From: an uncultured Planctomycetia bacterium
GTDB lineage: Bacteria; Omnitrophota; Gorgyraeia; Tantalellales; Tantalellaceae
DNA length: 64,000 nucleotides
Reading direction: 5' to 3'
NCBI GenBank assembly: GCA_964527765.1
Contig: CAZGQR010000004.1
Coordinates: forward strand, 83-64,082
The stretch's first letter is position 1. Every line of letters begins with the position of its first letter. The notes under the pieces are model-generated. The model did no database searches. It was not told where the DNA came from and was given only the letters and a program-made list of their open reading frames with translations. Shown here piece after piece: positions 2,150 to 57,400 of the stretch. The translations under genes were made by a program, and so were the position numbers.

Positions 2150-2623
2150 ATGAACATTCTAGAACTGCTGGCCAAGAACGCGATATCCGTTGACCTCAAG
2201 TCTTATAAGAAAAAAGAAGCGCTTTCAGAACTGGTGGACCTGCTGGTCTCGGCGGGCACGATCAAGAAAGCGGATAAACCTGAGATCCTGAATAAGCTTG
2301 AGGAAAGGGAAGTGCTGGGATCTACCGGCATAGGCAAAGGGGTGGCGATACCGCATGCCAAGTGCCCCGGGATCAAGAAAATGGTAGCCGCTTTCGGCAT
2401 ATCAAAGAAAGGCCTTGATTTTAAATCCCTTGACGGGGAACTTTCTCATATATTCTTTCTTTTGATAGCCCCCGGCGAAACACCGGGCCCCCATCTCAAG
2501 GCCCTGGCCAAGATATCCCGTTTACTGGACGATAAATTTGTAAGAGACAGGTTGCGCGCGGCGAAGAACATACAGGGCATTTTAGAGATAATCAGACAGG
2601 AAGAGCAAAAGAAATCCCGGTAG
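2150..2623 (+). CDS. ptsN: PTS EIIA type-2 protein (nitrogen-regulatory EIIA-Ntr-like)
   Basis: 157 aa. PTS_EIIA_2 hallmarks include the active-site His region GIGKGVAIPHAK. It is a stand-alone EIIA with no EIIB/EIIC nearby. Confidence 0.8.
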   Translation: MNILELLAKNAISVDLKSYKKKEALSELVDLLVSAGTIKKADKPEILNKLEEREVLGSTGIGKGVAIPHAKCPGIKKMVAAFGISKKGLDFKSLDGELSHIFFLLIAPGETPGPHLKALAKISRLLDDKFVRDRLRAAKNIQGILEIIRQEEQKKSR

Positions 2624-2625
2624 AA

Positions 2626-3882
2626 ATGAACATGAAAAGACTAAAGTGGCTATACCCGGGGATGCTGATCAAGCGGTGGATATCTCTTTCCGTTTTCGGT
2701 ATCCTCATGATCTCGATGGGGTTTGTCATAGTTATTTCCGAACGTAACCCCGAGAACAAGGCCATAGCGGGCCTTATCATCATTCTGGGGATCCTGTGCG
2801 TGATAATCGCCGTGAAAAGGATACTGAAATCCTTCATGACGGTCCTGATGCCGGAACCGGAAATGGTCAAAAATACCCTGGTAGACAAGGTGTACGCGAA
2901 ACGCATATTAGAAAAAGGTCCGAAGATAGTCGTGATCGGAGGGGGAACAGGCCTTTCCACGCTTCTGACGGGATTGAAACAAAAGACCAGTAATATCACC
3001 GCGATAGTGACGGTAGCGGATGACGGCGGGTCTTCAGGGCGGCTGCGCGAGGAATACGGAGTGCTGCCTCCGGGAGATATACGGAACTGTCTTGTGGCGC
3101 TTGCGGATTCGGAAGACCTTCTCGGGGCGCTTTTTCAGTTCCGCTTTAAGGAAGGAAAAGCGCTGCAGGGCCATAATTTCGGCAATATTTTTATCACGGC
3201 CCTTTCCAAGATCACGGGGGATTTTGCCAAGGCCATCAAGGAGTCCAGCAAGGTCCTTGCTATCAGGGGAAATGTGTTCCCGGCTACCCTGGAGAAGGTC
3301 AAACTGGTGGCGAGAAGAGAGAACGGGAAAGAGACGGTCGGAGAATGCCATATACGCGAAGAAAAGAGCAGTCCCATAGACTGGCTTTTCCTAAGGCCGA
3401 ACGAGTGCAAAGCAACGCAGGAATCAGTGGAAGCCATACGTCAGGCGGATGCGATCGTTCTGGGCCCGGGCAGCCTGTATACCAGCGTGATGCCGAACCT
3501 TCTCATAGAAGGGATACAGAGGGAGATCATGAGATCCAGGGCTATCAAGATCTATATTTGCAATGTCATGACCGAGGCGGGGGAAACGGACGATTATTCG
3601 GTAAGCGACCATGTCAAGGCCATCATAAAGCATACCCGTCCGGGCGTGATAGATTATTGCATAGCAAATGTCATGCGCATCCCAAAAGACCTTTATGAAA
3701 AATATAAGCTTGAAGACAAGTTCCCGGTGAAGTTAAATGAAAATGACGAGAGATGGTTCAGGCAGGAAAAGATAACACTGGTAAAGGCGCATATCGCCAG
3801 CATGAAGGAATTCGTCAGGCATGATTCATTAAAGCTGAGCGATACGATCATGGATATCCTGAATGAGAGCAGGAGAAGGTGA
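2626..3882 (+). CDS. yvcK: YvcK/CofD-family gluconeogenesis factor with an N-terminal extension of about 90 aa carrying two TM helices
   Basis: Core KIVVIGGGTGLSTLL....TVADDGGSSGRLR is diagnostic of the UPF0052/YvcK family. Upstream are two hydrophobic helices (ISLSVFGILMISMGFVIVI and AIAGLIIILGILCVIIAV). A later Met at about 2836 would give a conventional soluble protein. Confidence 0.8.
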   Translation: MNMKRLKWLYPGMLIKRWISLSVFGILMISMGFVIVISERNPENKAIAGLIIILGILCVIIAVKRILKSFMTVLMPEPEMVKNTLVDKVYAKRILEKGPKIVVIGGGTGLSTLLTGLKQKTSNITAIVTVADDGGSSGRLREEYGVLPPGDIRNCLVALADSEDLLGALFQFRFKEGKALQGHNFGNIFITALSKITGDFAKAIKESSKVLAIRGNVFPATLEKVKLVARRENGKETVGECHIREEKSSPIDWLFLRPNECKATQESVEAIRQADAIVLGPGSLYTSVMPNLLIEGIQREIMRSRAIKIYICNVMTEAGETDDYSVSDHVKAIIKHTRPGVIDYCIANVMRIPKDLYEKYKLEDKFPVKLNENDERWFRQEKITLVKAHIASMKEFVRHDSLKLSDTIMDILNESRRR

Positions 3883-6228: not shown

Positions 6229-8019
6229 ATGAAAGGGAAAAAAAGTTATTATCCGAAAAAGAAGCAGATCCAGCTGAAAGGGATCCCCGCGGCCTCCGGG
6301 ATCGTGATAGGCAAAGCGTATGTCTTCGGGACCGAAGACATAATGCCCGTCAAGCGCCATATCGCCGAAAAGGACATACCGCTCGAAATAGAGAGGTTCC
6401 AGAAAGCCCTGGAGAAGACAAAAAAAGAGATCCTCACGATAGAGAGAAAGATATCCAAGGAAATGGGGGTAGAGCACGGGAAGATCTTCAGCGCCCATCT
6501 CCTCGTGCTGGAGGACAGCGTCCTTGTCGAGGAAGTCATTTCCAGGCTGAAGAAAAAGAAGAGGAACATAGAAGTCATATTCGCCGAGGTTCTGGACAAG
6601 TACGTAAGCGCACTTTCCGAAGTGAAAGACGAATATCTGAGGGACAGGATCAGCGATATAACCGATGTCGGAAAGAGAATATTGCGGAATCTCGCGGGGG
6701 TGCAGGAAAAGAGCCTGAAGGACCTTGACGAAAAATCAATAGTGATCGCTTATGACCTGTCGCCTTCCGACACGGCAATGATGCATAAAGGGCGCGTGCT
6801 GGGTTTTGCCACGGATATAGGGGGAAGAACGTCGCATACGGCCATAATGGCGAAATCTCTGGAGATACCGGCAGTGGTGGGGCTGGAATCCGTTACGGAT
6901 GTGGTCAAGAACGGCGACCAGATAATACTGGACGGAGTGCACGGCGTGGTGATCATAAATCCCACCAGGGGATTCATTGAAAAATATCAGGAAGAGCAAA
7001 AGAAGTACGAACATCTTGAGCACGAACTCGTTGAGTTGAAATCACTGCCGGGCGAGACGCTTGACGGAAAAAGGGTCATCGTGGCGGGCAACATAGAATT
7101 ACCGGAGGACGTGGCCAGCGTTATTTCCCACGGCGCGGAGGGAATAGGGTTATACAGGACCGAATATTTTTACATGAACAGGCGCGATCTGCCCAGCGAG
7201 GAAGAGCAGTTTAACGCGTACAAGTCTGTCGCGACAAGAATAAAGCCGCACTACGTGGTGGTAAGAACGCTCGACCTGGGCGGGGATAAATTCCTTTCTC
7301 AGCTTGAGGTGCCGAAGGAGATGAACCCGTTCCTTGGATGGCGGGCGATACGGTTCTGCCTGGCGCGCCCCGACATCTTTAAATCCCATCTCAGGGCCAT
7401 ATTGAGGGCTTCCGCTTTCGGGAACCTGAGACTGATGTATCCGATGATCTCCGGCATCTCGGAATTCCGGCAGGCCAACGAAGTATTGGAAGAGGTCAAA
7501 AAAGAGCTCCGCGAAGAGGGCGTTCCCTTCAATGAGAATATCCCGGTGGGAGCGATGATCGAAGTGCCCTCAGCCGCTATTACCAGCGGCGTCCTGGCGA
7601 AGGAAGCTGATTTTTTCAGTATCGGGACCAACGATCTTATTCAGTACTCGCTTGCGGTGGACAGGGTCAACGAGAAGATCGCGTATCTTTACGAACCGGC
7701 GCATCCGGCGGTGCTGGACCTTATCAAGATGGTCATCGATAACGGGCACAGGGAGAACATATCGGTGGGTTTGTGCGGCGAGATGGCCGGGGACGTGTCA
7801 TTGACCATGATCCTGCTGGGACTCGGGCTGGACGAATTCAGCACTTCTCCCATCGCCGTGCCCGAGATCAAGAAGATAATACGTTCTATAAAATATTCCG
7901 AGGCAAAGGAGATCGCGGAGAAGGTAAGGACATTTGCCACCGGAAAACAGGTTGCAGATTTTGCCAAGGCCAAATTGAAGGAACTGGTCCCGGATGTAGC
8001 CATTGAACTGGGAGAATGA
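6229..8019 (+). CDS. ptsI: Phosphoenolpyruvate-protein phosphotransferase (PTS Enzyme I)
   Basis: 596 aa. GGRTSHTAIMAKSLEIPAVVG phospho-His region, C-terminal PEP-utilising TIM barrel motifs (NDLIQYSLAVDR, CGEMAGD). Confidence 0.9.
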   Translation: MKGKKSYYPKKKQIQLKGIPAASGIVIGKAYVFGTEDIMPVKRHIAEKDIPLEIERFQKALEKTKKEILTIERKISKEMGVEHGKIFSAHLLVLEDSVLVEEVISRLKKKKRNIEVIFAEVLDKYVSALSEVKDEYLRDRISDITDVGKRILRNLAGVQEKSLKDLDEKSIVIAYDLSPSDTAMMHKGRVLGFATDIGGRTSHTAIMAKSLEIPAVVGLESVTDVVKNGDQIILDGVHGVVIINPTRGFIEKYQEEQKKYEHLEHELVELKSLPGETLDGKRVIVAGNIELPEDVASVISHGAEGIGLYRTEYFYMNRRDLPSEEEQFNAYKSVATRIKPHYVVVRTLDLGGDKFLSQLEVPKEMNPFLGWRAIRFCLARPDIFKSHLRAILRASAFGNLRLMYPMISGISEFRQANEVLEEVKKELREEGVPFNENIPVGAMIEVPSAAITSGVLAKEADFFSIGTNDLIQYSLAVDRVNEKIAYLYEPAHPAVLDLIKMVIDNGHRENISVGLCGEMAGDVSLTMILLGLGLDEFSTSPIAVPEIKKIIRSIKYSEAKEIAEKVRTFATGKQVADFAKAKLKELVPDVAIELGE

Positions 8020-14468: not shown

Positions 14469-15140
14469 TTATAAGGTTCTTGCCAGCGTGAACCCCGATA
14501 CCTCTCTTGCTCCGGCGCGGAGCAGTTCCGCGGCGCATGCGTTGAGCGTGGCTCCCGTCGTAACTATATCATCCACCAGCATTACGGATCTTCCTGTGAG
14601 CCGCAGACGTTCGGTGACGGTAAAGGAATTCTTCAGGTTATTGATCCGGCTTTTCCCTGAAAGGCCGATCTGAGGCGCGGTGTTCTTTGTTTTGACGAGG
14701 ATAGAGAATGAGACCGGGGACGAGAGCCGTTCGGATATTACGCCCGAGATAAGTTCCGACTGGTTGTATCCCCTTGAAAAACGCCGGTTCGGATGGATAG
14801 GGACAGGAATGACCAGATCGACGGGGGCGGGCAGGGTCCTGCTCCCGTCGAAGTATTTGCGGATCATATCTTCAAAGACCGGTAACAGCTGCTGTTTTCC
14901 GCAGTATTTAAATTTTTTTATGCATTCTCTTACCGGACCTTCATAGGGGCGGCAGGACCATATTTTGTTAAGGTGCTCCAATGACCGGACCGGGGGAGGG
15001 TCCCCGGACAGGATCAGGTCTTTACACCCCCGGCATATCGGCAGGGGATAAGTAGCCGGCCTTTCACCGCACGCGATGCAATCGGAAGGCAATAATATAC
15101 TTATACACGACTGCAGTATTTGTACCGTTTGGGATTTCAA
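14469..15140 (-). CDS. comF: ComF-family phosphoribosyltransferase (competence protein F-like); 5' end uncertain
   Basis: N-terminal paired CxxC zinc ribbon (CIACG....CRGCKD) and C-terminal PRTase motif VMLVDDIVTTGATL. The listed ORF extends to 15245 through the RAYT 3' end and a REP copy. The only in-frame start candidate before the zinc ribbon is a TTG at 15138-15140. Confidence 0.65.
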   Translation of the reverse strand: MKSQTVQILQSCISILLPSDCIACGERPATYPLPICRGCKDLILSGDPPPVRSLEHLNKIWSCRPYEGPVRECIKKFKYCGKQQLLPVFEDMIRKYFDGSRTLPAPVDLVIPVPIHPNRRFSRGYNQSELISGVISERLSSPVSFSILVKTKNTAPQIGLSGKSRINNLKNSFTVTERLRLTGRSVMLVDDIVTTGATLNACAAELLRAGAREVSGFTLARTL

Positions 15141-15679
15141 GATTGCAAGTGTCCCCTTTTTTGTTCTATGAAAGTGTCCCCTAATGGGATAAAAGAACAA
15201 TCCATTTTCATCGGGTCTAAAATGTGTCTTTTTGATAATAGACACCGTTCTCTATAGCTGCTCCATTTATAGTCCGCGGGATCGTTGACTATACTGGCTC
15301 TTACGGGATTATTTTCAATATAAGTGGCGGCATTTACCAGGTAACGTCCTTTTATGATAGGGTGGTTTTTGAAGCGCCCCTGCCACAGATGTCCGACCTT
15401 TTGGTATTTAGTATTATGATATTCCGTATAACCACGGGTAAGCCAGTGCATCAATTTGGATATATTTTTAGATATATTCGCTTCTATTAGTAGATGAACA
15501 TGATTTGGCATAAGGCAATAGGCATATAGCATGATTTCGTATTTTCGTTTTGCCTTTTTAAGCGTGTGAATGTATTTTTCATAGTCCTCGTCGAGAAAGA
15601 ACACCTCTTGTTTTTGATTACCTCGAGTTGTAATATGGTAGCAGGCACAATCAATAAAGATCCTTGAGCTTCTTGGCAT
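15137..15679 (-). CDS. REP-associated tyrosine transposase (RAYT, IS200/IS605-like HuH Y1 transposase)
   Basis: MPRSSRIF..YHITTRG N-terminus, HVHLL (HuH) motif and C-terminal catalytic Tyr context DYKWSSYRE. Start trimmed to the conserved MPR.. Met (listed ORF starts 3 codons earlier at 15688). Confidence 0.8.
   Translation of the reverse strand: MPRSSRIFIDCACYHITTRGNQKQEVFFLDEDYEKYIHTLKKAKRKYEIMLYAYCLMPNHVHLLIEANISKNISKLMHWLTRGYTEYHNTKYQKVGHLWQGRFKNHPIIKGRYLVNAATYIENNPVRASIVNDPADYKWSSYRERCLLSKRHILDPMKMDCSFIPLGDTFIEQKRGHLQS
15147..15181. repeat. REP copies (2x AAGTGTCCCC = reverse complement of GGGGACACTT)
   Basis: 15147-15156 and 15172-15181, inverted relative to the copies at 15742-15779. 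Confidence 0.6.
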
Positions 15680-24993: not shown

Positions 24994-25473
24994 TTAAATT
25001 TTAAACTTATCCAAAATGTTATTTTTCTTATCTAAAACTCTGAATTTGTAGCTACACCAAGAATAATCTTCGGCCCTTTTACAGATATTAGCCCTAATTG
25101 GATTATACTCAATATATGAGATTATATTGATCAGATATTCGTCATTTTGAACCAGGAAGCTTTTATATCGATTTTGCCATAAGTGGCCACATTTATTGTA
25201 CTTGAAGTTATAGTATTGAGCATAAGATAAGTTTATTCTATGCATAATGTGTTTCAATGTTCCGGGTTTTATGGGGTTGATGAGTAAGTGCACATGATTC
25301 GGCATCAGGCAATAGGCATAGACTTTTACGCGGAATTTGCTTTTATATTTCCATAAGATGTGAAGATAGCGTTCAAAATCAGCACGCTCGAGGAAAACAT
25401 CTTCTTTACGAATACCCCGAGTGATTACATGGTAAGAAGAACTTTCAAAAAGAATTCTAGCAGTTCTGGCCAT
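24994..25473 (-). CDS. REP-associated tyrosine transposase (RAYT, IS200/IS605-like Y1 transposase), second copy
   Basis: MARTARILFESSSYHVITRG N-terminus, HVHLL HuH motif, C-terminal DYSWCSYKF catalytic Tyr context. About 50% identical to the copy at 15137-15679. Start trimmed to the conserved Met (listed ORF extends to 25524). Confidence 0.8.
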   Translation of the reverse strand: MARTARILFESSSYHVITRGIRKEDVFLERADFERYLHILWKYKSKFRVKVYAYCLMPNHVHLLINPIKPGTLKHIMHRINLSYAQYYNFKYNKCGHLWQNRYKSFLVQNDEYLINIISYIEYNPIRANICKRAEDYSWCSYKFRVLDKKNNILDKFKI

Positions 25474-25537
25474 AATTTCACCTCCTACCATTATTAGACG
25501 CAAAAAAGCGGGAAATTCTTTCAAAAAAATTAAAAAA

Positions 25538-48202: not shown

Positions 48203-48292
48203 TGTAACTTTCTATAAATAAAAGAGATACATGGAAAAATGTTTCAATATTCTCTTTTGGGTTAAGATATAAAATAGGTAGAAAATACAGAT

Positions 48293-48319
48293 TGACTTTT
48301 TCTTTCTCTCTGATATAAT
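48293..48319 (+). promoter_or_regulatory. sigma70-like promoter of the giant gene (TTGACT - 15 nt - TGaTATAAT)
   Basis: -35 at 48293-48298 and extended -10 TGATATAAT at 48311-48319. The ATG at 48329 lies only 10 nt after the -10, and there is no SD. Confidence 0.45.
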
Positions 48320-48328
48320 GAATACATT

Positions 48329-51300
48329 ATGTTAAAGTTAAGAGAACTAAAAGTCATAGCTTTAGCGGTTGTGATCGCTTTTTCATTCCAGAATCTGACC
48401 TATGCCAATCCCGATCTTTTTGCCAAAAATAACCGGCAGGCATCAGATACGCTGGCGCCGGAGGGGCGTTTCCAGAATTACGGCGTTGAGGCGCAGAGCC
48501 TTATGTTCCTTGTCCGTGCGGCCCAGGAAGTTTTAGCGAAAAATATCAGGCCGGAAAAAGTAACCGATTTTATCAAGAACTCGCCCGCCCTGACCCCTGA
48601 AATAGAAGAGAAGATCGATTTTGGCCTTGTGAACATTGTCGGGGACAAATCGAACAAACTCCAAGTCGGCTATCGCGGAGAACAGGGAACGCATGTCATA
48701 ACTTTCAGCGAAAAGCCCGAGCATATCCGTGGCCGCATGCCTGATTCCGCCGGACGCGTGCAAATAGCCAATATTATCGTGGAGATCGACGTACCTTCGA
48801 AAGGCATAGAACAGCCGGGACAAGCCCCCGAGGGAGGCGCCCGGGATACACTTATAGATGAAGCAGAGGGCGATATCACAGGTGCCTCGGAAGGCGATAC
48901 CGCTATTCATAGCGGGAAAAGGCATGAGGGCAAGAAACAGTTCAGGGGGATATTCGGTATCGGGTACGGAAGATGGCTTGCCAAAAAGGTCAGCGGGGTG
49001 TTCGGCAAATGGCACGTTAAAAGAGAACCCGGGGTCAATGATGTTATAAGGAAATACTGGCGCAAAGGCAAGCCCTTAAAAGGATGCTCCGCCTGCTCGC
49101 CGGAAGAGATGTCATCCATAATGGCGGCCATCTATGCGACCATGAGCGGCAAAAAGGTGGGAACGAGCATCATCGCGAACGTGTACAAGGTCTATATCTA
49201 TGATATAGGCAGGAGAGACTTCTCCGGCGGCGTTACCACCCATTTCGGCATAAGGACCGGCACCATCCACATTACAAAGGAAGAATATGAGAGACTGAAA
49301 AAACTGGATGAACGGGAGCATGAGAAACTGGAGTCTTCGGACGAGATCCACTTTTATCACCTTGCCGCGAGAATAGCGCATGAAGTCACTGAAATAGACA
49401 GCTGGAGGAAAAAAGCCAAGGATCTTGTCGCCGAAAAGGCGATAGACAGGCTGGGGTCGATCAAGAGTAAGTACAGCGATGACTGGGCCAACGGCATAAG
49501 GAAATGGATAAGGGACAATTGCAATACGTCGGGCAAGGGAGCGGCCCAGCGGCTTGACAGGGAATTTCACAGAAAAGGGTTCGATCGGGAAGCCTGCATA
49601 CTTGCCGAGTCTCTCCTGGCTGAGAATATACTGGCCAGAAAAGGTATTTCGGACAAAGAGAAGTATTATGAAACGGTCATGAAATTGTCCCGTGAATTTT
49701 TGGAGAACGGAAAATATGACGATCTTGTCGCCGATCTGGGGTCTTCCGTAAGGATCCCCCGGGGAAAGCGCAGGGAAGCGTTCGATTCCATCGTGAACAC
49801 CCTCAAGCATTTTGATGATACCAGGGGCCGGGAAGTCTTTATCAATGTGCTGTATGCAAAGGCATCTTTCGAATATATACGCGCGCTGGACGGCGGCGTG
49901 GACAGTCTCTTGCAGAAGGATTGGAGTTTCAAGGACAAAAGCAGGGGGCTTGCGCGGCGAATGGATATTTTAAGGGAAAGTCTGGAAAAAGTAAAATATA
50001 TCGACAGTGTCTCGCGCGAAGAGATCGAGACCTGGATAGACGAGACAGGGACCAAGATAAGGGTCCCCCCTCCGGGTATAGACGCCAGGGAGGTAGACGC
50101 CCTCATCAGTATTTTTATGGAAGTGAGAAAGCTGCTTTCCGGCAGGAACCATATGCAGGAGTGGGACAAGATCTATCCAAGCGTCTTTGGTCCCGAGGAT
50201 CCGGCAAGGGAGCCGGATATCATCGGCGCCTCCGATCCGGGGGAAAGCCCGGATATTGCGAACAGCGATCCCAAAGGCCCGGAAGATACAATAAGGGCCC
50301 CGAGTCCGATCGAGCCGGACGAGATCAAGATCATCGATTTCGGCCTCGGAGAAATGAAGAGCGAGATAATATCCGAAAGCATCAGCCCCCAGAACGGTCC
50401 GGTGAAACCGCCCATGGACACCGATGCGGTGCTGAATATCCTGGAGAAGTATAAGAACTGGAATTACCGGTCCGTCAAGGGCAGGTCCACGGAGAAGAGA
50501 GAAATGACCACCGGGCGGTCGCGGATGAAAGATACCAGCCGGAAGCAAAAAGAAACCAGCCGGAAACTGGAGACCACCCAGGAGACGGCCGGGTACAAGT
50601 ATATATCAAGATTTTCGGACGATGCCATTCTCAGGGAAAAGGTCAAAAAGGCGCGCGGCAGCGCCAGGGACCTGATGAACAATCCCCTGATCCTGAGGTT
50701 GACCGAGGGGTCGAGGGATTTCAGGATGTATTATGGTTCGTCCACGGGCTATTTTGACGTGCTTGATGTCAGGAAAGACTATCCGCATATCCTTGATATC
50801 ACGATCCTGGTCGACGGCAAGAGGGACCCGATCCTCAGGGCTTATGGACAGGAAGAAATAAAAAAGATATCAGAGGGGATATCCGCGGAATTTTCAGACG
50901 TTAACAGGTTCAATCTGACCGTTGTCGGCATTGAGGATATGAGGGAAGCCTTTCGCAAAGGCTCCTCCATGTCTTCAGAGAAAAGCGCGGATCTTCAGCG
51001 CTTGTTCATCAAGCTTTATAAAGAGGATATCCAGATCGCCGGGTCCAACCTGATAGACGAGAGTTCCGGCTTTCTGTCAGAGCTTGACCACTTTGAGAGG
51101 ATCTATATCGCCGAGCTTGTATCAAAGTTCACCCAGATGGCGGCAATAAGAGAGGACATGGAAGGGCTTGAAAGACATATCGGGCTGAGCGCCGATGAGA
51201 AACAGGAGTTAAAAAAGCTCAGAGAAAACCATAATAAGACCAAACTGAAGATCGGGGAGCTGGAAACGCAGCAGGAGCGGGTCAACAACGCCATGGAGGC

Positions 51301-54300
51301 GCTTGACGGGAAGAGAAAGCAGCTGACGGGTGATCCTAAAAAGATCAAGGAAGCTACCAGAAAGATCCTTGCGGGGGAAGAGGTATCTGAAGATGAAGCA
51401 GGCCCTCTCGGCGAGGTCGTTGCCGAACTTGCCGGAAGGATCATCTCAGGAGAAAAAGTTCCCGAGGACGAGTTTGATCGCATGGCGGATGACATCAACA
51501 GGGCGGTCGCCGACTTTGACATCGATAAATTTAATCAGCAGGTAAAAACGATATCCCGTGAAGCGAATAAGGTAGCTGATGGACTGACGAAGTTGAATGG
51601 CCTTCTGAAGAGAGAGGAGGAACTGCGGATAAGGGAGCAGGGCGTGCCGCAGAGACTCGCCAGGCTTGAATTCGAAAGGTATAAAGTCGACCGGGATTGC
51701 GAACTTCTGTGCAAGAAGATAGAAGACGCGCAGTCCGGCCGCCCGCTCACTCAGGGTATCGTGATCAATAACAGGTATATCGTCATGGAAAAACTGGGCC
51801 AGGGCGGTTTCGGAGCGGTCTACCGCGTTCTTAACAAACAGACAGGCCAGGAGAAGGCCTTGAAGATCATCTTGCCTACCCGGCATATGGATCTTTCCAC
51901 GAGGATGCGGACCATGGCGGCGTTCAACAGGGAAGTGGAGAGCCATAACAGTCTCTGCGAAATACACGCTCAGGTGCCCGTGGTGGAAGCAAGGGGTGGT
52001 TACGCCGGGTCCCCGTATTTCGTAATGTCCCTTGAGAAAGGCCTGACGCTTAAAGAGATACACCAGAAGCTGGTAAACGGCAGTCTGCGGTTGAGCATGC
52101 GCGAAAAACTCATACTTATGCATGCCGTGATGAAAGCGGTTGCGACGATTCACAGCGGGGGATATATTCACAGGGACCTGAAACCAGAAAATATCATGAT
52201 CCCGGCCAACGAGGACGGCACCATAGCGTTTCCGGGCAATATCCATGAGCCTGAATTTCTCGCCAGCACCCGTTATGACGCGTTTGTGAGGAGAGTGACT
52301 ATCCTGGACCTGGGAAGGGCCGTTCGCGGCGAAAAAACCGACGAAGAGGACGATATCGCCCTGATCGAGGATATTAACAGGACCATGGTCACGGGCCAGT
52401 TCATCGTGGGAACGCCGCATTTTATGGCTCCCGAACAGTTCAAAAAAGAAGCTATCAGCAGTTTCGCTGACGTTTACGCCCTGGGGATCACGTTCTATCT
52501 GATCTTCAGCCATCATTACCCCATAGCGGACGGCGAGAGGATGTTCGCGGTCATCGCCTCGAAACATGTGGATATGGAACTGGCCCCGGAACCGCTGTGC
52601 GAAATAATAGAAAGAGAGAACGAAAGACTGCGTCAGGTAAGGGCCCAAAACCGTCTTGTGGACAAAAAGCGTCTGGACGCGATCAGGGAGGACCTGACGG
52701 ACGCGCTGGTAGCGCAGAAAGCCCCGGACAGAAGGGTCATTATCGTCTCATCCAGAAGGGACGGCCGAAGGCGCATGCAGTGGCTTACCGAGGTGCTTGA
52801 CGAAAGCATCCTGAGAGAACGGCTCGCAAGAATGCAGGATCCTGACAGCGGTGAGCGCCTGGTCACCGATGAAGAGATCGACAGGATCGTAGCGCTCGTT
52901 ATCCTCAAGCTTCCACAGACCGACGGCCTCATAGAAGCATTGATCCAGCAGATGCTGGAGAAATACCAGGGAGGGCGCCCGACCACCGAAGATGTGATCC
53001 AGGAGATGGAAAAGTATTTGACCGACAGAAAAGATGCGATGATCTACAGAAGCCGCGATGAAAAGATAAAGGAAGAAGCCCTGGAAGGCGTGGAGACGTC
53101 CCAGGACGCGAAAGCAAGACTGGCCGGGGTGAACAAGAAGATCGGCGAGCTGACGATTCAATATAAAAGCGAAACGGACACGACAAAAAAGGCTAAGATC
53201 AGGAAACTCCTGGAGATACAGGAAAAGAAGGGACAGGTGCTCGAAGAGGCCGCGACAACATTGAGGAGGGAAGGAAGCGTTGTGAGGGCCGCCAAGTGGC
53301 TCCAGAATCATACCGCTCTGCTGGCGGCTGTTGCCGCGGGTGCTGTCCTGCTCCTGGCGGCCATCGTGGCGACCCTTGTCGTTCTGTACCGGTCGGCTGT
53401 CAGTGAAAGGCAGGCCGCGCGCAAAGCTGCCGAGACAGCGAAGGCCGAAAGGACAAAAGCGCTCGAGGACAAGGAAAAAGCCCTGAAAGAGGTCGTAGTA
53501 GCCGAAAGCAGGCTGCAGGAACTTAACAAGATCAAGGAAGAACTCTCGGGGAGCCTGCTCGAGCTGGAGCAAAAGAAGGGTACCGCCCTGAAGGAGCAGG
53601 CCACGTTATCCGAACAGATAAAAGACCTTAAGGAGAGGGCGGAAAAAGCCGCCGAACTTGAGGAAACGATATTAAAGCTGGAAGAGCAGGAAAAGGCCTT
53701 AAAGCAAAAAGAAAAGGAATTGAACGAAAAGGTCGAGAAAACAGAAACCGGGCTCAAAGAAAAGACGGCCGCGCTTGAAAAGGCGCAAAAAGAACTCGCA
53801 AGGTACAGGGAAAGCATGCCGGGTGTTTTCGAGGATGCCAAGGCGAAAGCCGCAAAACTGGAAGCCGACGAGGCCATACATATCATAGAGGTAGGGGGAG
53901 AGCGGTGGTGGTGGAGCATAGACGAGACCACCCTGAAGCAGTTCACGCTCGGGTTCGACGAAGTCTCGAGGATCATGGTAAATAACGGCCAGTTCGATGA
54001 AGCCATCAGACTGGAGGAAAGAAGGATAGATTGGCTGGTCGATATGGCCGACTGGCGAGACACGGAAGCGGAAAAACTTTCCTTTGTAAAGGAAATAATA
54101 AAAAGTCAGGTTGCCGTAATAAATATTCACAGGGCGAAAGGAAGTTACGACGCGGCAGAGAAGCTTGCAAAGGAACTTATGAATAAGAACGAATACAAGG
54201 CATCGAAGGAGTGGATGGAGCTTTTGAGGGATTGTCTCATCGAGGTAGTTCTCGAAAATGCCGCGCTGGAGACGATACCTGCGAAGAGACAACAGAAATT

Positions 54301-57300
54301 GCTGGAAGCGGAAAAGCTGGTCAAACAGGTCGAATCCGAGGAAAAAAGAAATCTTCATCTCGGAAATATTTTCCTTATCAGGCCGGATCTCGGGAATGCC
54401 TTAAAGTATTTTGAGACCTATTACAACCTCTGGTTGAAAAAAGCCGGAGAAGAAGGGATATCCGCCGGCGTGAAAAACCAAAGGCAGCATGAAGCGGCTC
54501 AAGGGATCTTGTTAAGCGCGGTGACCCATAAAATGCAGGCCGAGATCCATAAAGGCAAAAACGACCCCGAAAATATGGAAAAAGCCTGTGATGCCGCGGA
54601 AAAACTGCTGGAAAAGATAGTAAAAGAGTTTGCCAAAGATAAAGACATCCAGGCCTGGGCGCTATTCTTGAAAGGTGAGACAGCGCGTCTTAAAGGAGAC
54701 CTGGAAAGATCAAAAGGGATATACGAGCAGGCGGAGTTCAGCGCGCATGATACCGAACAAAAATTGCTGGCAGCGATCATTTGCGCAAGGCTCGGGAAAA
54801 AAATCGCATGGAACAACATGACAAAGACCTGGGAGGCGCTGATATCAGGGAAGATCCCCGTCCCCGCGCCGTATATAAAGGAAGTCAAGGAGCTGCTCGT
54901 GGAAGGGACAGAAAAATACCGCAAGGGCATCGAAGATGCTAAACGCAGGGCGGAAGAAGAAAGGATAAAAGAAGAGCTCAGAAAGAAGCAGGAAGCCGAA
55001 GCGAAAGAGATCAGGAAAGAGGCACTGGAAGGCGTGGAGAAGGCAAAGGACGCGGAGAATAAACTGGTTCAGATAAACAGCGAGATCGCCGCGTTGGAAG
55101 CCGCGCTGGACAAGGAACAGGACGAATCGAAAAGAAAGGATATTCAGAAACAGCTGGACAGGGCGAAGAAAAAGAAACAGGTGCTTGGGGCGGAAAAAGA
55201 AAAGCTGGAAAAACAGGAAGCCGAAAGTAAAGCCAGGGAAGAGTTCAGGAAAAAGGTATTAGAAGGCATAAAGACATCGAAAGACGCAAAAGTCAGGCTG
55301 GTCGGGATCAACAAGGAGATCGGCACCCTGACGGGCAACCTGCGCACGGAAGAGAATAAAAGCAAAAGAGCGCAGATGGAAAAACAGCTGCAGGAGGCAA
55401 AAGAGAAAAAGAAAATACTGGAAGAAGCCAGGGACAGGCTGGAAAAAGAGGAAGCCGAGCGCAAAGCGGAAGAGGAGTTCAGGAAAGAGGTCCTGAAGAA
55501 CGTGAAAACGCCGGCGGACGCGGAAGCCGAACTTACCAAAATCAACGCCGAGATCGGCACGCTCAAAGGCAAGCTGGGCGCGACGGAAGACCAGCCCGAG
55601 AAGGAAGAGATCCAGAAACAGCTGGACAGGGCAGAGAAGGCGAAAAAGGTGCTGGAAGAGGAAAAGAAAGCCCTGGAGGAAAGAGAGGCGGAAGCCGAGC
55701 GCAAAGCGGAAGAAGAGTTCAGAAAAGAGGTCCTGAAGGATATTAAGACACTGGCGGAAGCAAAGGCCAGACTGGAGGGGCTGAATAAAGATATAGGAAC
55801 GCTGACGGATAAGCTGTCCTCGGCAAAGGATGAGGAAAAAGCGGAAATAGAGTCAGGATTGGAAAAAGCAAAGAAGACAAAACAAGTGCTTGAAGAGGCC
55901 ATAAAGAAGCTGGAGGAGGCCAGGCCCGAGAAGGAGACCCCCGATCCCGATAAAACCCCGGAACCCGGGAAAAAAGACGCTTCACAATCAGGCATGGCCC
56001 CGGTTCCGCAGATACCTATCGCAAATGATGTTTCCAGAGCGCCTGACCACAGGCTGCTCAATGCCGTTATCAAGTGCGCCATTGATGAGGCATTGTTCGA
56101 CCGTCTCGAAAAGCGGGATGATGACACGATCACGGTCTTTGTTTTCGGGGACGATAGCTGCAGGAATTTTGGCGATGTTTATGAGCGCCTGGAGAACAAG
56201 GTAAGGGTGAGCGAGATGTTCAAGGCGGCGTGCAGGGCTGACAGCGTGCCGTCGGAAATAATGCCCATGCTGCACGAGACCGGGATGGCAAACCTTCATA
56301 ATGTTTCGGGCCATGCCGGCATTGAAAATTCGACGATTTATGCCGTAAAAGGCGTTCCGAACCTGGAAGTTCTCATAAATCATGAAAAAGAGGAAATGAG
56401 GATTCATCAGAAGCACGCGGCCGGGTTCGCCGGCCTTGGTTCGTGGGAAGAAGTCCCGAAAATCGAACGGCGCGGTCTCATACAATTAATGAGGAAACGA
56501 GGAGGCGGGTGCAATGTTTTTGCCATGTTCGCCCACAAGCGGGCTAACAAAAAATTCCCGGTTTCCGGGAACAGCGAACTTATTCCGGACAGCATGGAAG
56601 AAAGAAAATTGGCCGATACTATAGGAAAACATTATCAGGTCCCCGTGGCCGGGGGAGCTGAAACACGGGAAGACTTGACCCCCGGGGCGGCCCTAAAAGC
56701 TCTTTTGGGGATCGTAAAGAAGATCTCGGGTAAACTGGTCTCTTCTTTTGCTCCGGCTCCGGTAAAGTGCCTTCGGGATCGTTCCCGCACGGATGCCGGA
56801 GAAGGTGTTATCATCTTTGCTGATGATATCGTGGACCACTCCGCGGTATTTGACCTGGACAGGGTGGCCAAAACCATGGGCAGGCCCGAAAGCATCCTGC
56901 GCACGGTCGTGCTATACGCGAAGAACGCAAAAAAGGCCGAGCTTGTCGCAGAAATAATAAAGAACGCCAATCCGAAGGCCGACGTCGAGATGATCCTGGA
57001 TAAGGATGTCAGGGAACATTACGACGAGGAGTATTATTCGACGTCGCAGGTAGAAGCTGTCGTGCGATATTCGATGAACAGGAAAAGCGGGATATTCACG
57101 CAAGCCAGCCAGATACTCGGCGTCATAAGAGGCCCTCTTTCGGCGGGTGAGAGTGAGGAAGCCCTGAGAGAGGAGCTTAAGAGAAGTTCGCTGAGAGTTC
57201 CCGTGGTTATTTTTGAAAATAGCGCCAAAGGCAATATTTATTCCGTGATGCAGGCCCTGGCGAAACTCATTGAACGCGGACGCCTTTCAGAGGACGGATG

Positions 57301-57400
57301 GCTCTTTGTCCTCCCCCCGATCACGCGCATTTCCGACATTCTGCAGAAAGAATACGAGCTGTACAGGACCATGGTCAAGGCCCTGGAAGCGGCAGCATAA
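48329..57400 (+). CDS. Giant 3,023-aa multidomain protein: signal peptide, N-region of about 1,100 aa with no recognised domain, Hanks-type Ser/Thr kinase domain, TM helix, tandem coiled-coil repeats, and C-domain of about 450 aa with no recognised domain
   Basis: Uninterrupted 9,072-nt ORF. Signal peptide MLKLRELKVIALAVVIAFSFQNLTYA. Kinase motifs GQGGFGAVY / ALKII / HRDLKPEN / DLG / MAPEQF at aa about 1150-1420. TM LLAAVAAGAVLLLAAIVATLVVLY at aa about 1663-1688. Repeats are E/K-rich, about 75 aa each. Confidence 0.85.
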   Translation: MLKLRELKVIALAVVIAFSFQNLTYANPDLFAKNNRQASDTLAPEGRFQNYGVEAQSLMFLVRAAQEVLAKNIRPEKVTDFIKNSPALTPEIEEKIDFGLVNIVGDKSNKLQVGYRGEQGTHVITFSEKPEHIRGRMPDSAGRVQIANIIVEIDVPSKGIEQPGQAPEGGARDTLIDEAEGDITGASEGDTAIHSGKRHEGKKQFRGIFGIGYGRWLAKKVSGVFGKWHVKREPGVNDVIRKYWRKGKPLKGCSACSPEEMSSIMAAIYATMSGKKVGTSIIANVYKVYIYDIGRRDFSGGVTTHFGIRTGTIHITKEEYERLKKLDEREHEKLESSDEIHFYHLAARIAHEVTEIDSWRKKAKDLVAEKAIDRLGSIKSKYSDDWANGIRKWIRDNCNTSGKGAAQRLDREFHRKGFDREACILAESLLAENILARKGISDKEKYYETVMKLSREFLENGKYDDLVADLGSSVRIPRGKRREAFDSIVNTLKHFDDTRGREVFINVLYAKASFEYIRALDGGVDSLLQKDWSFKDKSRGLARRMDILRESLEKVKYIDSVSREEIETWIDETGTKIRVPPPGIDAREVDALISIFMEVRKLLSGRNHMQEWDKIYPSVFGPEDPAREPDIIGASDPGESPDIANSDPKGPEDTIRAPSPIEPDEIKIIDFGLGEMKSEIISESISPQNGPVKPPMDTDAVLNILEKYKNWNYRSVKGRSTEKREMTTGRSRMKDTSRKQKETSRKLETTQETAGYKYISRFSDDAILREKVKKARGSARDLMNNPLILRLTEGSRDFRMYYGSSTGYFDVLDVRKDYPHILDITILVDGKRDPILRAYGQEEIKKISEGISAEFSDVNRFNLTVVGIEDMREAFRKGSSMSSEKSADLQRLFIKLYKEDIQIAGSNLIDESSGFLSELDHFERIYIAELVSKFTQMAAIREDMEGLERHIGLSADEKQELKKLRENHNKTKLKIGELETQQERVNNAMEALDGKRKQLTGDPKKIKEATRKILAGEEVSEDEAGPLGEVVAELAGRIISGEKVPEDEFDRMADDINRAVADFDIDKFNQQVKTISREANKVADGLTKLNGLLKREEELRIREQGVPQRLARLEFERYKVDRDCELLCKKIEDAQSGRPLTQGIVINNRYIVMEKLGQGGFGAVYRVLNKQTGQEKALKIILPTRHMDLSTRMRTMAAFNREVESHNSLCEIHAQVPVVEARGGYAGSPYFVMSLEKGLTLKEIHQKLVNGSLRLSMREKLILMHAVMKAVATIHSGGYIHRDLKPENIMIPANEDGTIAFPGNIHEPEFLASTRYDAFVRRVTILDLGRAVRGEKTDEEDDIALIEDINRTMVTGQFIVGTPHFMAPEQFKKEAISSFADVYALGITFYLIFSHHYPIADGERMFAVIASKHVDMELAPEPLCEIIERENERLRQVRAQNRLVDKKRLDAIREDLTDALVAQKAPDRRVIIVSSRRDGRRRMQWLTEVLDESILRERLARMQDPDSGERLVTDEEIDRIVALVILKLPQTDGLIEALIQQMLEKYQGGRPTTEDVIQEMEKYLTDRKDAMIYRSRDEKIKEEALEGVETSQDAKARLAGVNKKIGELTIQYKSETDTTKKAKIRKLLEIQEKKGQVLEEAATTLRREGSVVRAAKWLQNHTALLAAVAAGAVLLLAAIVATLVVLYRSAVSERQAARKAAETAKAERTKALEDKEKALKEVVVAESRLQELNKIKEELSGSLLELEQKKGTALKEQATLSEQIKDLKERAEKAAELEETILKLEEQEKALKQKEKELNEKVEKTETGLKEKTAALEKAQKELARYRESMPGVFEDAKAKAAKLEADEAIHIIEVGGERWWWSIDETTLKQFTLGFDEVSRIMVNNGQFDEAIRLEERRIDWLVDMADWRDTEAEKLSFVKEIIKSQVAVINIHRAKGSYDAAEKLAKELMNKNEYKASKEWMELLRDCLIEVVLENAALETIPAKRQQKLLEAEKLVKQVESEEKRNLHLGNIFLIRPDLGNALKYFETYYNLWLKKAGEEGISAGVKNQRQHEAAQGILLSAVTHKMQAEIHKGKNDPENMEKACDAAEKLLEKIVKEFAKDKDIQAWALFLKGETARLKGDLERSKGIYEQAEFSAHDTEQKLLAAIICARLGKKIAWNNMTKTWEALISGKIPVPAPYIKEVKELLVEGTEKYRKGIEDAKRRAEEERIKEELRKKQEAEAKEIRKEALEGVEKAKDAENKLVQINSEIAALEAALDKEQDESKRKDIQKQLDRAKKKKQVLGAEKEKLEKQEAESKAREEFRKKVLEGIKTSKDAKVRLVGINKEIGTLTGNLRTEENKSKRAQMEKQLQEAKEKKKILEEARDRLEKEEAERKAEEEFRKEVLKNVKTPADAEAELTKINAEIGTLKGKLGATEDQPEKEEIQKQLDRAEKAKKVLEEEKKALEEREAEAERKAEEEFRKEVLKDIKTLAEAKARLEGLNKDIGTLTDKLSSAKDEEKAEIESGLEKAKKTKQVLEEAIKKLEEARPEKETPDPDKTPEPGKKDASQSGMAPVPQIPIANDVSRAPDHRLLNAVIKCAIDEALFDRLEKRDDDTITVFVFGDDSCRNFGDVYERLENKVRVSEMFKAACRADSVPSEIMPMLHETGMANLHNVSGHAGIENSTIYAVKGVPNLEVLINHEKEEMRIHQKHAAGFAGLGSWEEVPKIERRGLIQLMRKRGGGCNVFAMFAHKRANKKFPVSGNSELIPDSMEERKLADTIGKHYQVPVAGGAETREDLTPGAALKALLGIVKKISGKLVSSFAPAPVKCLRDRSRTDAGEGVIIFADDIVDHSAVFDLDRVAKTMGRPESILRTVVLYAKNAKKAELVAEIIKNANPKADVEMILDKDVREHYDEEYYSTSQVEAVVRYSMNRKSGIFTQASQILGVIRGPLSAGESEEALREELKRSSLRVPVVIFENSAKGNIYSVMQALAKLIERGRLSEDGWLFVLPPITRISDILQKEYELYRTMVKALEAAA
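54963..55935 (+). repeat. About four tandem copies of a coiled-coil repeat of about 225-240 nt (75-80 aa) within the giant gene
   Basis: Repeated EEFRKEVLK..K...A.A.L..IN.EIGTL.G.L......K..I.KQLD.A.K.K.VLEE...LE..EAE.KA units, with recurring nt strings such as GAAGAGTTCAGGAAAGAGGTCCTGAAG. A diverged copy lies before the TM helix at about 53065-53275. A spurious antisense ORF at 55144-56133 is a by-product. Confidence 0.75.

Follow-up and report, generated by a model that had tools for sequence, protein, structure and literature searches.

A giant Hanks-type kinase protein of one Omnitrophota lineage, read as a membrane-anchored signalling scaffold

The DNA analysed here, a 64,000-nucleotide stretch of an Omnitrophota contig (CAZGQR010000004.1, assembly GCA_964527765.1; hereafter the window), carries a single open reading frame (ORF) for a protein of 3,023 residues, which we call the giant protein. 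Bacterial Hanks-type kinases are usually read as cytoplasmic enzymes with extracellular sensors, whereas the giant protein has an intact Hanks-type Ser/Thr kinase behind a conserved Sec-type signal. Our best reading is that it is a membrane-anchored signalling scaffold, and not an adhesin or a toxin. Specifically, we give somewhat better than an even chance to its being a bitopic, membrane-anchored scaffold for Hanks-type Ser/Thr phospho-signalling, vertically inherited and specific to one Omnitrophota lineage. Its architecture is undescribed, and at least five domains of the locus (N1, N2core/C1, N3, MID and C2) are, as judged from their sequences, without a counterpart in Pfam or the PDB.

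Architecture of the giant protein

A preliminary description of this DNA had argued that so long a frame could not be chance, and this holds. At the GC content of the window, which is 51.3% and not the ~55% then given, the odds of 3,023 stop-free codons arising by chance are ~1e-60. The same description had the anatomy right: a signal, ~1,100 residues of no recognised kind, a complete Hanks kinase, one transmembrane (TM) helix, coiled-coil repeats and a C-terminus of no recognised kind. The parts are given below with their residue numbers (aa) and, where modelled with AlphaFold2 (AF2), the predicted local distance difference test (pLDDT).

48329..57400, + strand: whole ORF, 3,023 codons plus stop, ATG start
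48329..48406, + strand: predicted Sec-type signal peptide, aa 1-26, with n/h/c anatomy; F18, Q21, A26 / N-P28-D29 invariant
48416..48823, + strand: N1, aa 30-165, alpha+beta in AF2 (helices and a 5-stranded sheet, pLDDT ~70-88)
49091..49603, + strand: N2core, aa 255-425, a His/Glu/Arg domain and the most conserved block (57%)
49604..50248, + strand: N2tail, aa 426-640, a confident helical bundle in AF2
50396..51208, + strand: N3, aa 690-960, always upstream of the kinase
51209..51700, + strand: variable helical/coiled-coil linker, aa 961-1124, the least conserved block (17-25% identity, many indels)
51770..53023, + strand: Hanks-type Ser/Thr kinase, aa 1148-1565, from Pfam Pkinase and catalytic motifs
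53105..53296, + strand: extra, diverged copy of the 79-aa repeat, aa 1593-1656 (BLAST to a repeat unit, 37% identity, E 1e-6)
53306..53407, + strand: predicted single TM helix, aa 1660-1693, Kyte-Doolittle maximum 2.85
53408..53830, + strand: coiled coil after the TM helix, aa 1694-1834, E+K 42%, heptad a/d pattern over 1687-1831
53831..54943, + strand: MID, aa 1835-2205, helical and TPR-like
55049..55936, + strand: four tandem ~79-aa helical repeats, aa 2241-2536 (~890 nt)
56027..56608, + strand: C1, aa 2567-2760, a second HExxE-type domain, PDHRLLN...SGHAG...TIYxV...INHExxEMxxH
56771..57397, + strand: C2, aa 2815-3023, Rossmann-like alpha/beta, always at the extreme C-terminus

The kinase is the only domain of the giant protein that Pfam and NCBIfam recognise. 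Pfam Pkinase (PF00069) matches aa 1150-1413 with a score of 99.5 bits (cut-off 31.7), and among solved structures StkP, PknA and PknB are the nearest. Its motifs comprise a GQGGFG loop, HRDLKPEN, DLG (a variant of DFG), APE and the subdomain XI arginine R1550. Across an alignment of eight orthologues (the giant protein and its seven co-linear relatives, described below), G1157/G1159/G1162, K1179, E1202, H1281-R-D1283, K1285 and N1288 are invariant, as are D1327-L-G, P1368-E1369, D1381 and R1550. Because every catalytic residue is kept, this is very probably an active, ATP-dependent kinase. Three large inserts interrupt it: one between subdomains VIb and VII, one within the activation segment, and one of ~130 aa that separates subdomains X and XI. 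The variable linker that lies upstream is rich in E, K, R, Q, A and L.

Ahead of the kinase, N3 has the core motif R-h-F/Y-x-G-S-x-T/S-G-Y-F-x-V-x-D...H-x-x-D/E-I-T/V...VG...RAELQRLF. It stands immediately before the kinase in the distant relatives P0030, P0035 and P0038-43 as well, some of which add MID and/or C1/C2, and its place next to the kinase in all of them marks N3-kinase as a conserved module. A Pol-beta-type nucleotidyltransferase was considered for N3 on account of its G-S-x-x-G...D-I-T pattern, and found no support: N3 has T or V where DxD would have its second acidic residue, and neither the PDB nor Pfam gives a match.

N2core is recognised by the motif YxVYxYD...TTHxGIRTGxIHITKxEYxRL...LAARIAHExxEIxxW...IRxWI...H...E. 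In 19 diverse sequences H305, E355, R391, W393, H414 and E421 are invariant, and H314, R348, H351 and E352 nearly so; these conserved residues look like a catalytic or metal site. C1 has a comparable set, with H2662, H2685, E2686, E2689 and H2693 invariant in an eight-sequence alignment, and the AF2 model of its core has a pLDDT mostly of 72-93, with one block at 59. Both domains have a beta-hairpin motif, [ST][TG]HxG...[ST]I[HY][IV], followed by a helix with HExxE. When the N-terminal profile is aligned with the C-terminal one in hhalign, N2core pairs with C1 (E 5.3e-5, probability 67%), an alignment which indicates that the giant protein holds two copies of one small His/Glu domain.

N2core is mobile. 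It occurs in other long proteins alongside FHA (P0050, P0051), a receiver (REC) domain with sigma70_r4 and a methyltransferase (P0047), and M23 (P0036). Its predicted partner domains represent mostly phospho-signalling contexts, and its movement with kinase, FHA and receiver domains makes it a candidate for a new catalytic partner in Ser/Thr phospho-signalling. Elsewhere in several N2core proteins, within their last ~230 aa, there are zincin-like HExxH motifs (HEGLH, HEMMH and HEEAH in P0047, P0050 and P0052), and P0049 has weak M78/M48-type matches at aa ~200-235. The pattern hints at an association of N2core with metallopeptidase modules. As for known folds, N2core and C1 were rejected as zincin metallopeptidases themselves, with HExxE in place of HExxH, no peptidase match in Pfam for eight members and no PDB profile match. 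VanY/LAS-type, HNH, Fic and HEPN domains were also considered for N2core and dropped, since its motif spacings do not match theirs.

At the other end, the C-terminal region of ~460 aa is, as first described, without recognised motifs, in that it has no Pfam or PDB sequence match. C2 is Rossmann-like, a candidate for the universal stress protein (USP)/HUP class, with a conserved acidic loop, VIIFADDxxDxSAVFD, and P0038-40 seem to have a diverged C2-like domain at their C-termini. A CheY-like receiver, a HAD enzyme and a PRTase were each entertained for C2 on the strength of the 'ADD' after beta-1, and set aside in view of the absence of a conserved phospho-acceptor or P-loop. More generally, Pfam searches with all sequences of the N- and C-terminal alignments gave no usable match for the non-kinase domains, and neither did PDB profile searches with C1C2, N1N2, N2core and N3, in which a match to AcrIIC3 (E 0.06) was judged to be chance. 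AF2 models of aa 27-640 and 2565-3023, with a pLDDT of ~70, gave no fold assignment for N1, N2core or C1.

The TM helix is the only strong internal hydrophobic segment, and is preceded by a basic juxtamembrane stretch, YR(P)RGE...R..VR.A.W. Signal and TM helix are present in all eight orthologues. Downstream, MID has a weak resemblance to TPR_12 (E 0.03, 15 bits, below the cut-off of 30.1), and is conserved in the orthologues and in P0030, P0035, P0041 and P0043. The repeats noticed at the outset resolve into four ~79-aa helical units (2241-2321, 2319-2400, 2396-2480 and 2476-2536; 48-54% mutually identical) plus the one diverged unit before the TM helix, and a Pro-rich linker separates the tandem units from C1. 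Copy number is four in P0017 and about one in other orthologues. The extra unit belongs to the giant protein alone among the eight aligned sequences (a gap in 7/7 orthologues), and with its position just before the TM helix the 79-aa repeat occurs both ahead of and behind the predicted membrane span.

Both termini carry further conserved features. The predicted signal reads MLKLRELK / VIALAVVIAFSF / QNLTYA / NPD, with a basic n-region, a 12-residue h-region and T-Y-A before N-P. It has the features expected of a Sec signal peptide cleaved by signal peptidase I, with Ala at -1 in 8/8 orthologues and T, V, S or A at -3. The segment averages 54% pairwise identity, against 35% for the TM helix, and this excess suggests a specific sorting or recognition signal. 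Its motif, F-[ST]-x-Q-[ND]-[IVL]-x-[WYSAG]-A / [ND]-P-D, recurs in P0026, P0027, P0035, P0037-40 and P0042, relatives that differ in their downstream domains. At the opposite end the giant protein terminates in ...ALEAAA-COOH (tail codons at 57380-57397 of the window), and the C-termini of almost all complete relatives read -[A/S]A-COOH, in most cases ...LE[S/A]AA. The carriers are as follows.

-[A/S]A-COOH: P0012-18, P0024, P0028, P0030-33, P0035, P0038-39, P0043, P0046-47, P0049-52 and the upstream giant in locus L009

Among these are proteins that have N2core alone in common with the giant protein (P0046, P0047, P0049-52) and an unrelated giant that adjoins P0038. In the window, the tail is found on one of 45 ORFs, the giant protein itself. 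Together, the shared N-terminal motif and the -AA tail suggest a common route of sorting, processing or turnover for these long proteins, and the tail is possibly an ssrA-like or tail-specific-protease signal. No tmRNA gene was found in the window or in the related loci retrieved.

Gene integrity, family and genomic setting

The preliminary description had raised the prospect that the ORF is an assembly chimera. Such a misassembly, or a fusion of neighbouring genes across the repeats, could appeal to the internal repeats themselves and to a relative, P0030 (L014 1653-10218), whose synteny is kept although its gene is divided into ORFs of 332 aa and 2,516 aa. The break there falls within N2core on a contig of 2.24x coverage, and its most likely cause is a frameshift introduced in sequencing, not a genuine division of the gene. 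For the giant gene this reading is already effectively refuted, and we accord it a negligible probability. An identical 3,023-aa product is encoded on nine contigs from independent assemblies (Logan, JGI, ENA, NCBI), which excludes a mis-join, and the 90% cluster of the protein contains two further full-length variants. The orthologues are co-linear end to end, and GC along the gene is continuous (0.48-0.54) and the same as in the rest of the window. Over the repeat region, Tandem Repeats Finder reported two short 18-nt arrays only, and did not detect the 79-aa (~237-nt) unit as a tandem array in the DNA; with the units just ~50% identical at the protein level, this identifies them as old duplications and not an artefact of assembly.

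The gene has a promoter of its own:

48292..48319, + strand: predicted sigma-70-type promoter, TTGACT-16 nt-(TG)TATAAT, score 11/12, extended -10

The ATG follows 9 nt after the end of the -10 box, and the giant gene in the window lacks a Shine-Dalgarno sequence. Consequently, the gene looks monocistronic, and its mRNA is probably leaderless. This promoter-to-ATG geometry is kept at L002 (~7931-8003), L003 (~2800-2872), L012 (~7931-8003) and L014 (~1583-1655). L004 differs, with a GGAG Shine-Dalgarno before the orthologue. An upstream GTTAAG-TATAAAATAG block is common to the window, L002 and L003 only.

Although the protein had been thought to have no whole-length homologue, a whole-protein search returned seven co-linear ones (2,634-2,911 aa, 32-44% identity). 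These relatives are from Omnitrophota metagenome-assembled genomes (MAGs), which bears out the earlier guess at a candidate phylum known for giant proteins; one is annotated as a 'Candidatus Omnitrophica bacterium' protein kinase. At four syntenic orthologue loci, examined besides the window's own contig, the gene order is the same: BatD, TPR/SH3, MetH, MnmG, radical-SAM, giant, Gly-zipper, histidine kinase. At the loci examined for the co-linear orthologues it extends over ~20 kb, on through the response regulator and a tRNA methyltransferase. Neighbouring proteins are mostly 60-85% identical between these genomes (37-56% for the Gly-zipper protein, the response regulator and a small ORF), and the giant protein is 32-39% identical. 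Within one Omnitrophota clade the giant gene is a core gene, present in a single copy, inherited vertically and evolving fast.

Few genomes carry the family. When 185,579 species-representative genomes (GTDB) were scanned by pattern, two had it, one represented by L005 and the other by L006 and L007, which are two contigs of one MAG; a scan of JGI metagenome contigs yielded one further locus (L015). Between them the scans contributed just three new loci, L006, L007 and L015. More distant relatives, gathered by searching 1.8 billion representatives exhaustively with HMMER and by use of local hidden Markov models, have sub-modules in common with the giant protein. P0035 (L012/L013 8001-14729) is a more distant positional orthologue, with synteny kept and with N2core and C1 lost together. 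In P0035 a two-helix hydrophobic hairpin (aa 225-272) lies at the place of N2, and a moderately hydrophobic segment (aa 1990-2015) at that of C1.

A short family, comprising P0031, P0032 and P0033 (L010, L008 and L011; ~860-970 aa) and with P0028 listed beside it, has an N-terminal hydrophobic signal or anchor, N1, N2 and C2. N1 is also present in P0035. The short proteins P0031-33 are without kinase and TM helix, and the giant protein looks like their core with N3, kinase, TM helix, MID, repeats and C1 inserted. At L011, RHH/PemK and Polbeta-like genes are neighbours of the short-family gene.

P0038 (L009, GCA_016929115.1, 6001-13812) carries a signal, HD, a low-molecular-weight phosphatase, N3, kinase, two TM helices and HAD. 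Its HD and phosphatase sit where N1-N2 are in the giant protein, and its HAD lies on the C-terminal side; P0040 has HATPase_c (GHKL ATPase). The variable modules around the kinase in these relatives are thus predicted phospho-signalling enzymes. The setting of P0038 is unlike the window, since its gene follows an ORF of >2,000 aa (L009 1-5929), which has no Pfam match, and precedes rimP-nusA.

The window is otherwise an ordinary segment of bacterial chromosome with two tRNAs. On its upstream side the giant gene is preceded by a MoxR-vWA-BatA-D operon and, after this operon, by MetH, MnmG and a radical-SAM gene. Downstream come genes for a Gly-zipper protein of 132 aa, a PAS histidine kinase and a response regulator, followed by HMGL-like, aldolase, Exo_endo_phos and radical-SAM genes. 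The preliminary description had asked whether the giant gene is always followed by the Gly-zipper gene and the two-component pair. Adjacency of the Gly-zipper and histidine kinase genes does hold, while the response regulator, present at L001-L004, is not found at L012 or L014. As a functional trio, or as an operon with the giant gene, the arrangement is not supported. The 20-kb housekeeping neighbourhood is equally syntenic throughout, the promoters are separate (the Gly-zipper gene has its own, with an AAGGAGG site), and P0038 occurs in a different context, so this adjacency is no evidence of a functional unit. Elsewhere in the window there are two paralogous IS200-like Y1 transposase genes (PF01797), at 15137-15679 (-) and 24994-25491 (-) with E 3e-16 and 5e-18, within the two lowest-GC stretches (0.47 and 0.43).

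Topology and the weighing of alternative readings

As a scaffold, the giant protein would be held at the cytoplasmic membrane with its two halves on opposite faces. The state of the half formed by N1, N2, N3 and the kinase would be coupled, via the TM helix and coiled coils, to the half that carries MID, the repeats, C1 and C2. N2core and C1 would most likely be metal-dependent hydrolases. One candidate activity is that of a phospho-esterase opposing the kinase, suspected mainly because the variable modules around the kinase in relatives are phospho-signalling enzymes; the other is that of a self-processing peptidase, by analogy with the C39/S8 domains of other Omnitrophota giants. By standard topology rules, the kinase-bearing N-terminal half would be the exported one. 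A Sec-type signal followed by one stop-transfer helix places aa 27-1659, including the kinase, outside, and aa 1694-3023 in the cytoplasm. This orientation is a formal prediction, not a settled one, and we lean towards it only slightly over its reverse. Distant relatives repeat the plan, in that the signal is followed by the kinase with no odd TM helix between, and then by one or more TM helices; in those with a TM hairpin, HAD or HATPase_c is also on the kinase side.

Several observations weigh against the scaffold as oriented here. Export by the signal peptide would take a kinase that depends on ATP into the periplasm, a compartment considered to be without ATP (PMC11032199), and in a survey of Ser/Thr kinases in Planctomycetota, of the PVC superphylum, every Pkinase domain was predicted to be cytoplasmic (PMC11032199). 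Around the TM helix in 13 relatives, the kinase-side flank has 51 K/R and 21 D/E, against 42 K/R and 35 D/E on the other side; the more positive flank favours a cytoplasmic kinase. In the short family P0031-33, which lacks the TM helix, N2 and C2 are on the same side, while the single TM helix separates them in the giant protein. A signal that is more conserved than the TM helix is atypical of simple export. Further, the hydrolase assignment of N2core and C1 is drawn from conserved His, Glu and Arg residues and domain context only, and their motif is HExxE, not HExxH.

The main rival is a PknB-like receptor kinase of opposite orientation, which we regard as a serious but clearly less probable alternative. 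Here the kinase and the N-terminal 1,650 aa would be cytoplasmic, with the N-terminal hydrophobic segment an uncleaved, conserved membrane tether or interaction helix. The C-terminal half would be an extracytoplasmic sensor or effector, made up of a variable-length coiled-coil stalk, the TPR-like domain, C1 and C2. Besides meeting the kinase's need for ATP and agreeing with the Planctomycetota survey and the flank charges, this arrangement gives the order of kinase, basic juxtamembrane stretch (YRPRGE..R..VR) and TM helix, the classic layout of eukaryote-like Ser/Thr kinases (eSTKs). Variation in the copy number of the helical stalk repeats is typical of surface-exposed stalks. The N-terminal segment is conserved far above an ordinary signal peptide (54%, with F18, Q21, A26, P28 and D29 invariant), and domains that are normally cytoplasmic (HD, low-molecular-weight phosphatase, HAD, HATPase_c) lie on the kinase side in relatives. 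The N-terminus tells against such an orientation. It has the n-h-c structure of a textbook signal, with an h-region of 12 residues and with positions -3 and -1 both taken by small residues, and a basic N-terminus with one hydrophobic stretch should orient N-in and export what comes after. No second hydrophobic segment between aa 27 and the kinase could return the chain, and C2, as a Rossmann-like and putatively USP-like domain, is more typical of cytoplasmic nucleotide binders.

An exported factor directed at a host or prey, which the preliminary description had suggested, is unlikely in our judgement and without direct support. The N-terminal half, or the whole protein after processing, would then phosphorylate targets beyond the cytoplasm of the producer, such as those in an attached host cell, and it is solely through the predicted export of the kinase that an attack role is possible. 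In keeping with it, the signal is kept in all relatives, always directly before the kinase-bearing region, the giant protein evolves about twice as fast as its neighbours, and N2core is also found with a secreted-type M23 peptidase. Omnitrophota are reported to be ultra-small, to have host-dependent traits and to carry giant proteins implicated in predation. The gene itself speaks otherwise, being single-copy, vertical and strictly syntenic amid housekeeping genes (MetH, MnmG, tRNA methyltransferase), and it shows no trace of horizontal transfer. The protein would be kept in the producer's inner membrane by its very hydrophobic stop-transfer helix. Pfam searches found no adhesin, lectin, Ig-like, dockerin, carbohydrate-binding, pore-forming or lytic domain, and no known adhesin or toxin family matches end to end, since Pfam and NCBIfam give the kinase only. 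The secretion-system and pilZ neighbours reported around Omnitrophota giant genes are absent, and the family is rare, with two GTDB species representatives and one JGI metagenome locus by pattern scan.

Returning to the scaffold with its exported kinase, a bolder extension is that the family consists of exported, active Hanks kinases sorted by an undescribed, dedicated pathway. The marks of this pathway would be the h-region with Q-N/D-x-x-W/Y-A / N/D-P-D at the N-terminus, and a C-terminal domain with ...Y...LE[S/A]AA-COOH. We think this doubtful. If true, Omnitrophota would deploy phospho-signalling enzymes outside the producer cytoplasm, either in an ATP-supplied periplasm or in or on an attached host cell, and the HD, phosphatase, HAD and GHKL-ATPase modules of the relatives would go along with the exported kinase.

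Comparison with known systems

The giant protein resembles PknB, StkP and PknA in its kinase fold, in all catalytic motifs and in the layout of kinase, basic juxtamembrane stretch and single TM helix. It differs from these eSTKs in having ~1,120 aa and a Sec-type signal before the kinase, three large kinase inserts, no PASTA or other known sensor in Pfam, and 1,330 aa of unassigned domains after the TM helix. Indeed, the order of signal, kinase and TM helix is not the usual plan for an eSTK (compare PMC11032199), as had been remarked at the start. It does not belong to NCBIfam PknB_PASTA (NF033483), which reaches 99.9 bits against a cut-off of 450 and aligns with the kinase N-lobe region alone.

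PADLOC models of the defence kinases MADS Mad6 and PD-T4-6 also match the kinase (mad6 E 2e-36, PD-T4-6 E 1.6e-32), but the kinase core alone aligns, no MADS partner genes are nearby, and the locus is a syntenic core gene and not a defence island. A defence-system kinase was accordingly rejected, NCBIfam MAD6 (NF047741) reaching 57.4 bits against a cut-off of 460 over the kinase core only, with no supporting context. YpkA/YopO translocated effector kinases offer a parallel for a Hanks kinase outside the producer's cytoplasm, if the signal is functional, and the GDI-like domain of YpkA gives weak structural matches to the N2 helical tail.

The closest parallels by lineage are the long Omnitrophota proteins that combine a signal peptide with TM helices, a topology class that accounts for 39% of long proteins in this phylum and in which cytoplasm-type enzymes on the outer face have already been noted (10.64898/2026.06.07.730766). 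With these proteins, Archaeovorins and related, the giant protein has in common the phylum, the topology class and cytoplasm-type enzymes predicted to be exported. It also shares a putative processing domain near the signal, and signalling modules (HATPase_c, HAD, HD) in its relatives. Under the word 'kinase', neither 10.1101/2023.11.21.568195 nor 10.64898/2026.06.07.730766 mentions a Hanks or Ser/Thr kinase family. Peptidase domains (C39, S8) beside the signal peptide of Omnitrophota giants have been proposed to cleave them (10.1101/2023.11.21.568195). The likeness of these peptidases, and of the CPD of MARTX toxins, to N2core near the N-terminal signal and C1 near the C-terminus is one of analogy only: there is no sequence or detectable fold similarity, and the N2core motif is His/Glu (HExxE), not Cys/His or Ser.

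In other respects the giant protein stands apart from these proteins. It is 3 thousand amino acids (kaa) long, against 10-147 kaa, and has a single TM helix, against tens. Pfam detects no HEAT, glycosyl-hydrolase or dockerin content in it, and its gene belongs to a syntenic block of housekeeping genes, with no type II secretion, pilus or pilZ genes next to it. By length, TM count, defining Pfam families and neighbours alike, it therefore falls outside the Archaeovorin and dockerin-type giants. It nonetheless represents a compact, 3-kaa case of the Omnitrophota puzzle of cytoplasm-type enzymes predicted on the exported face, and this size makes expression, topology mapping and kinase assays feasible, unlike for proteins of 40-150 kaa.

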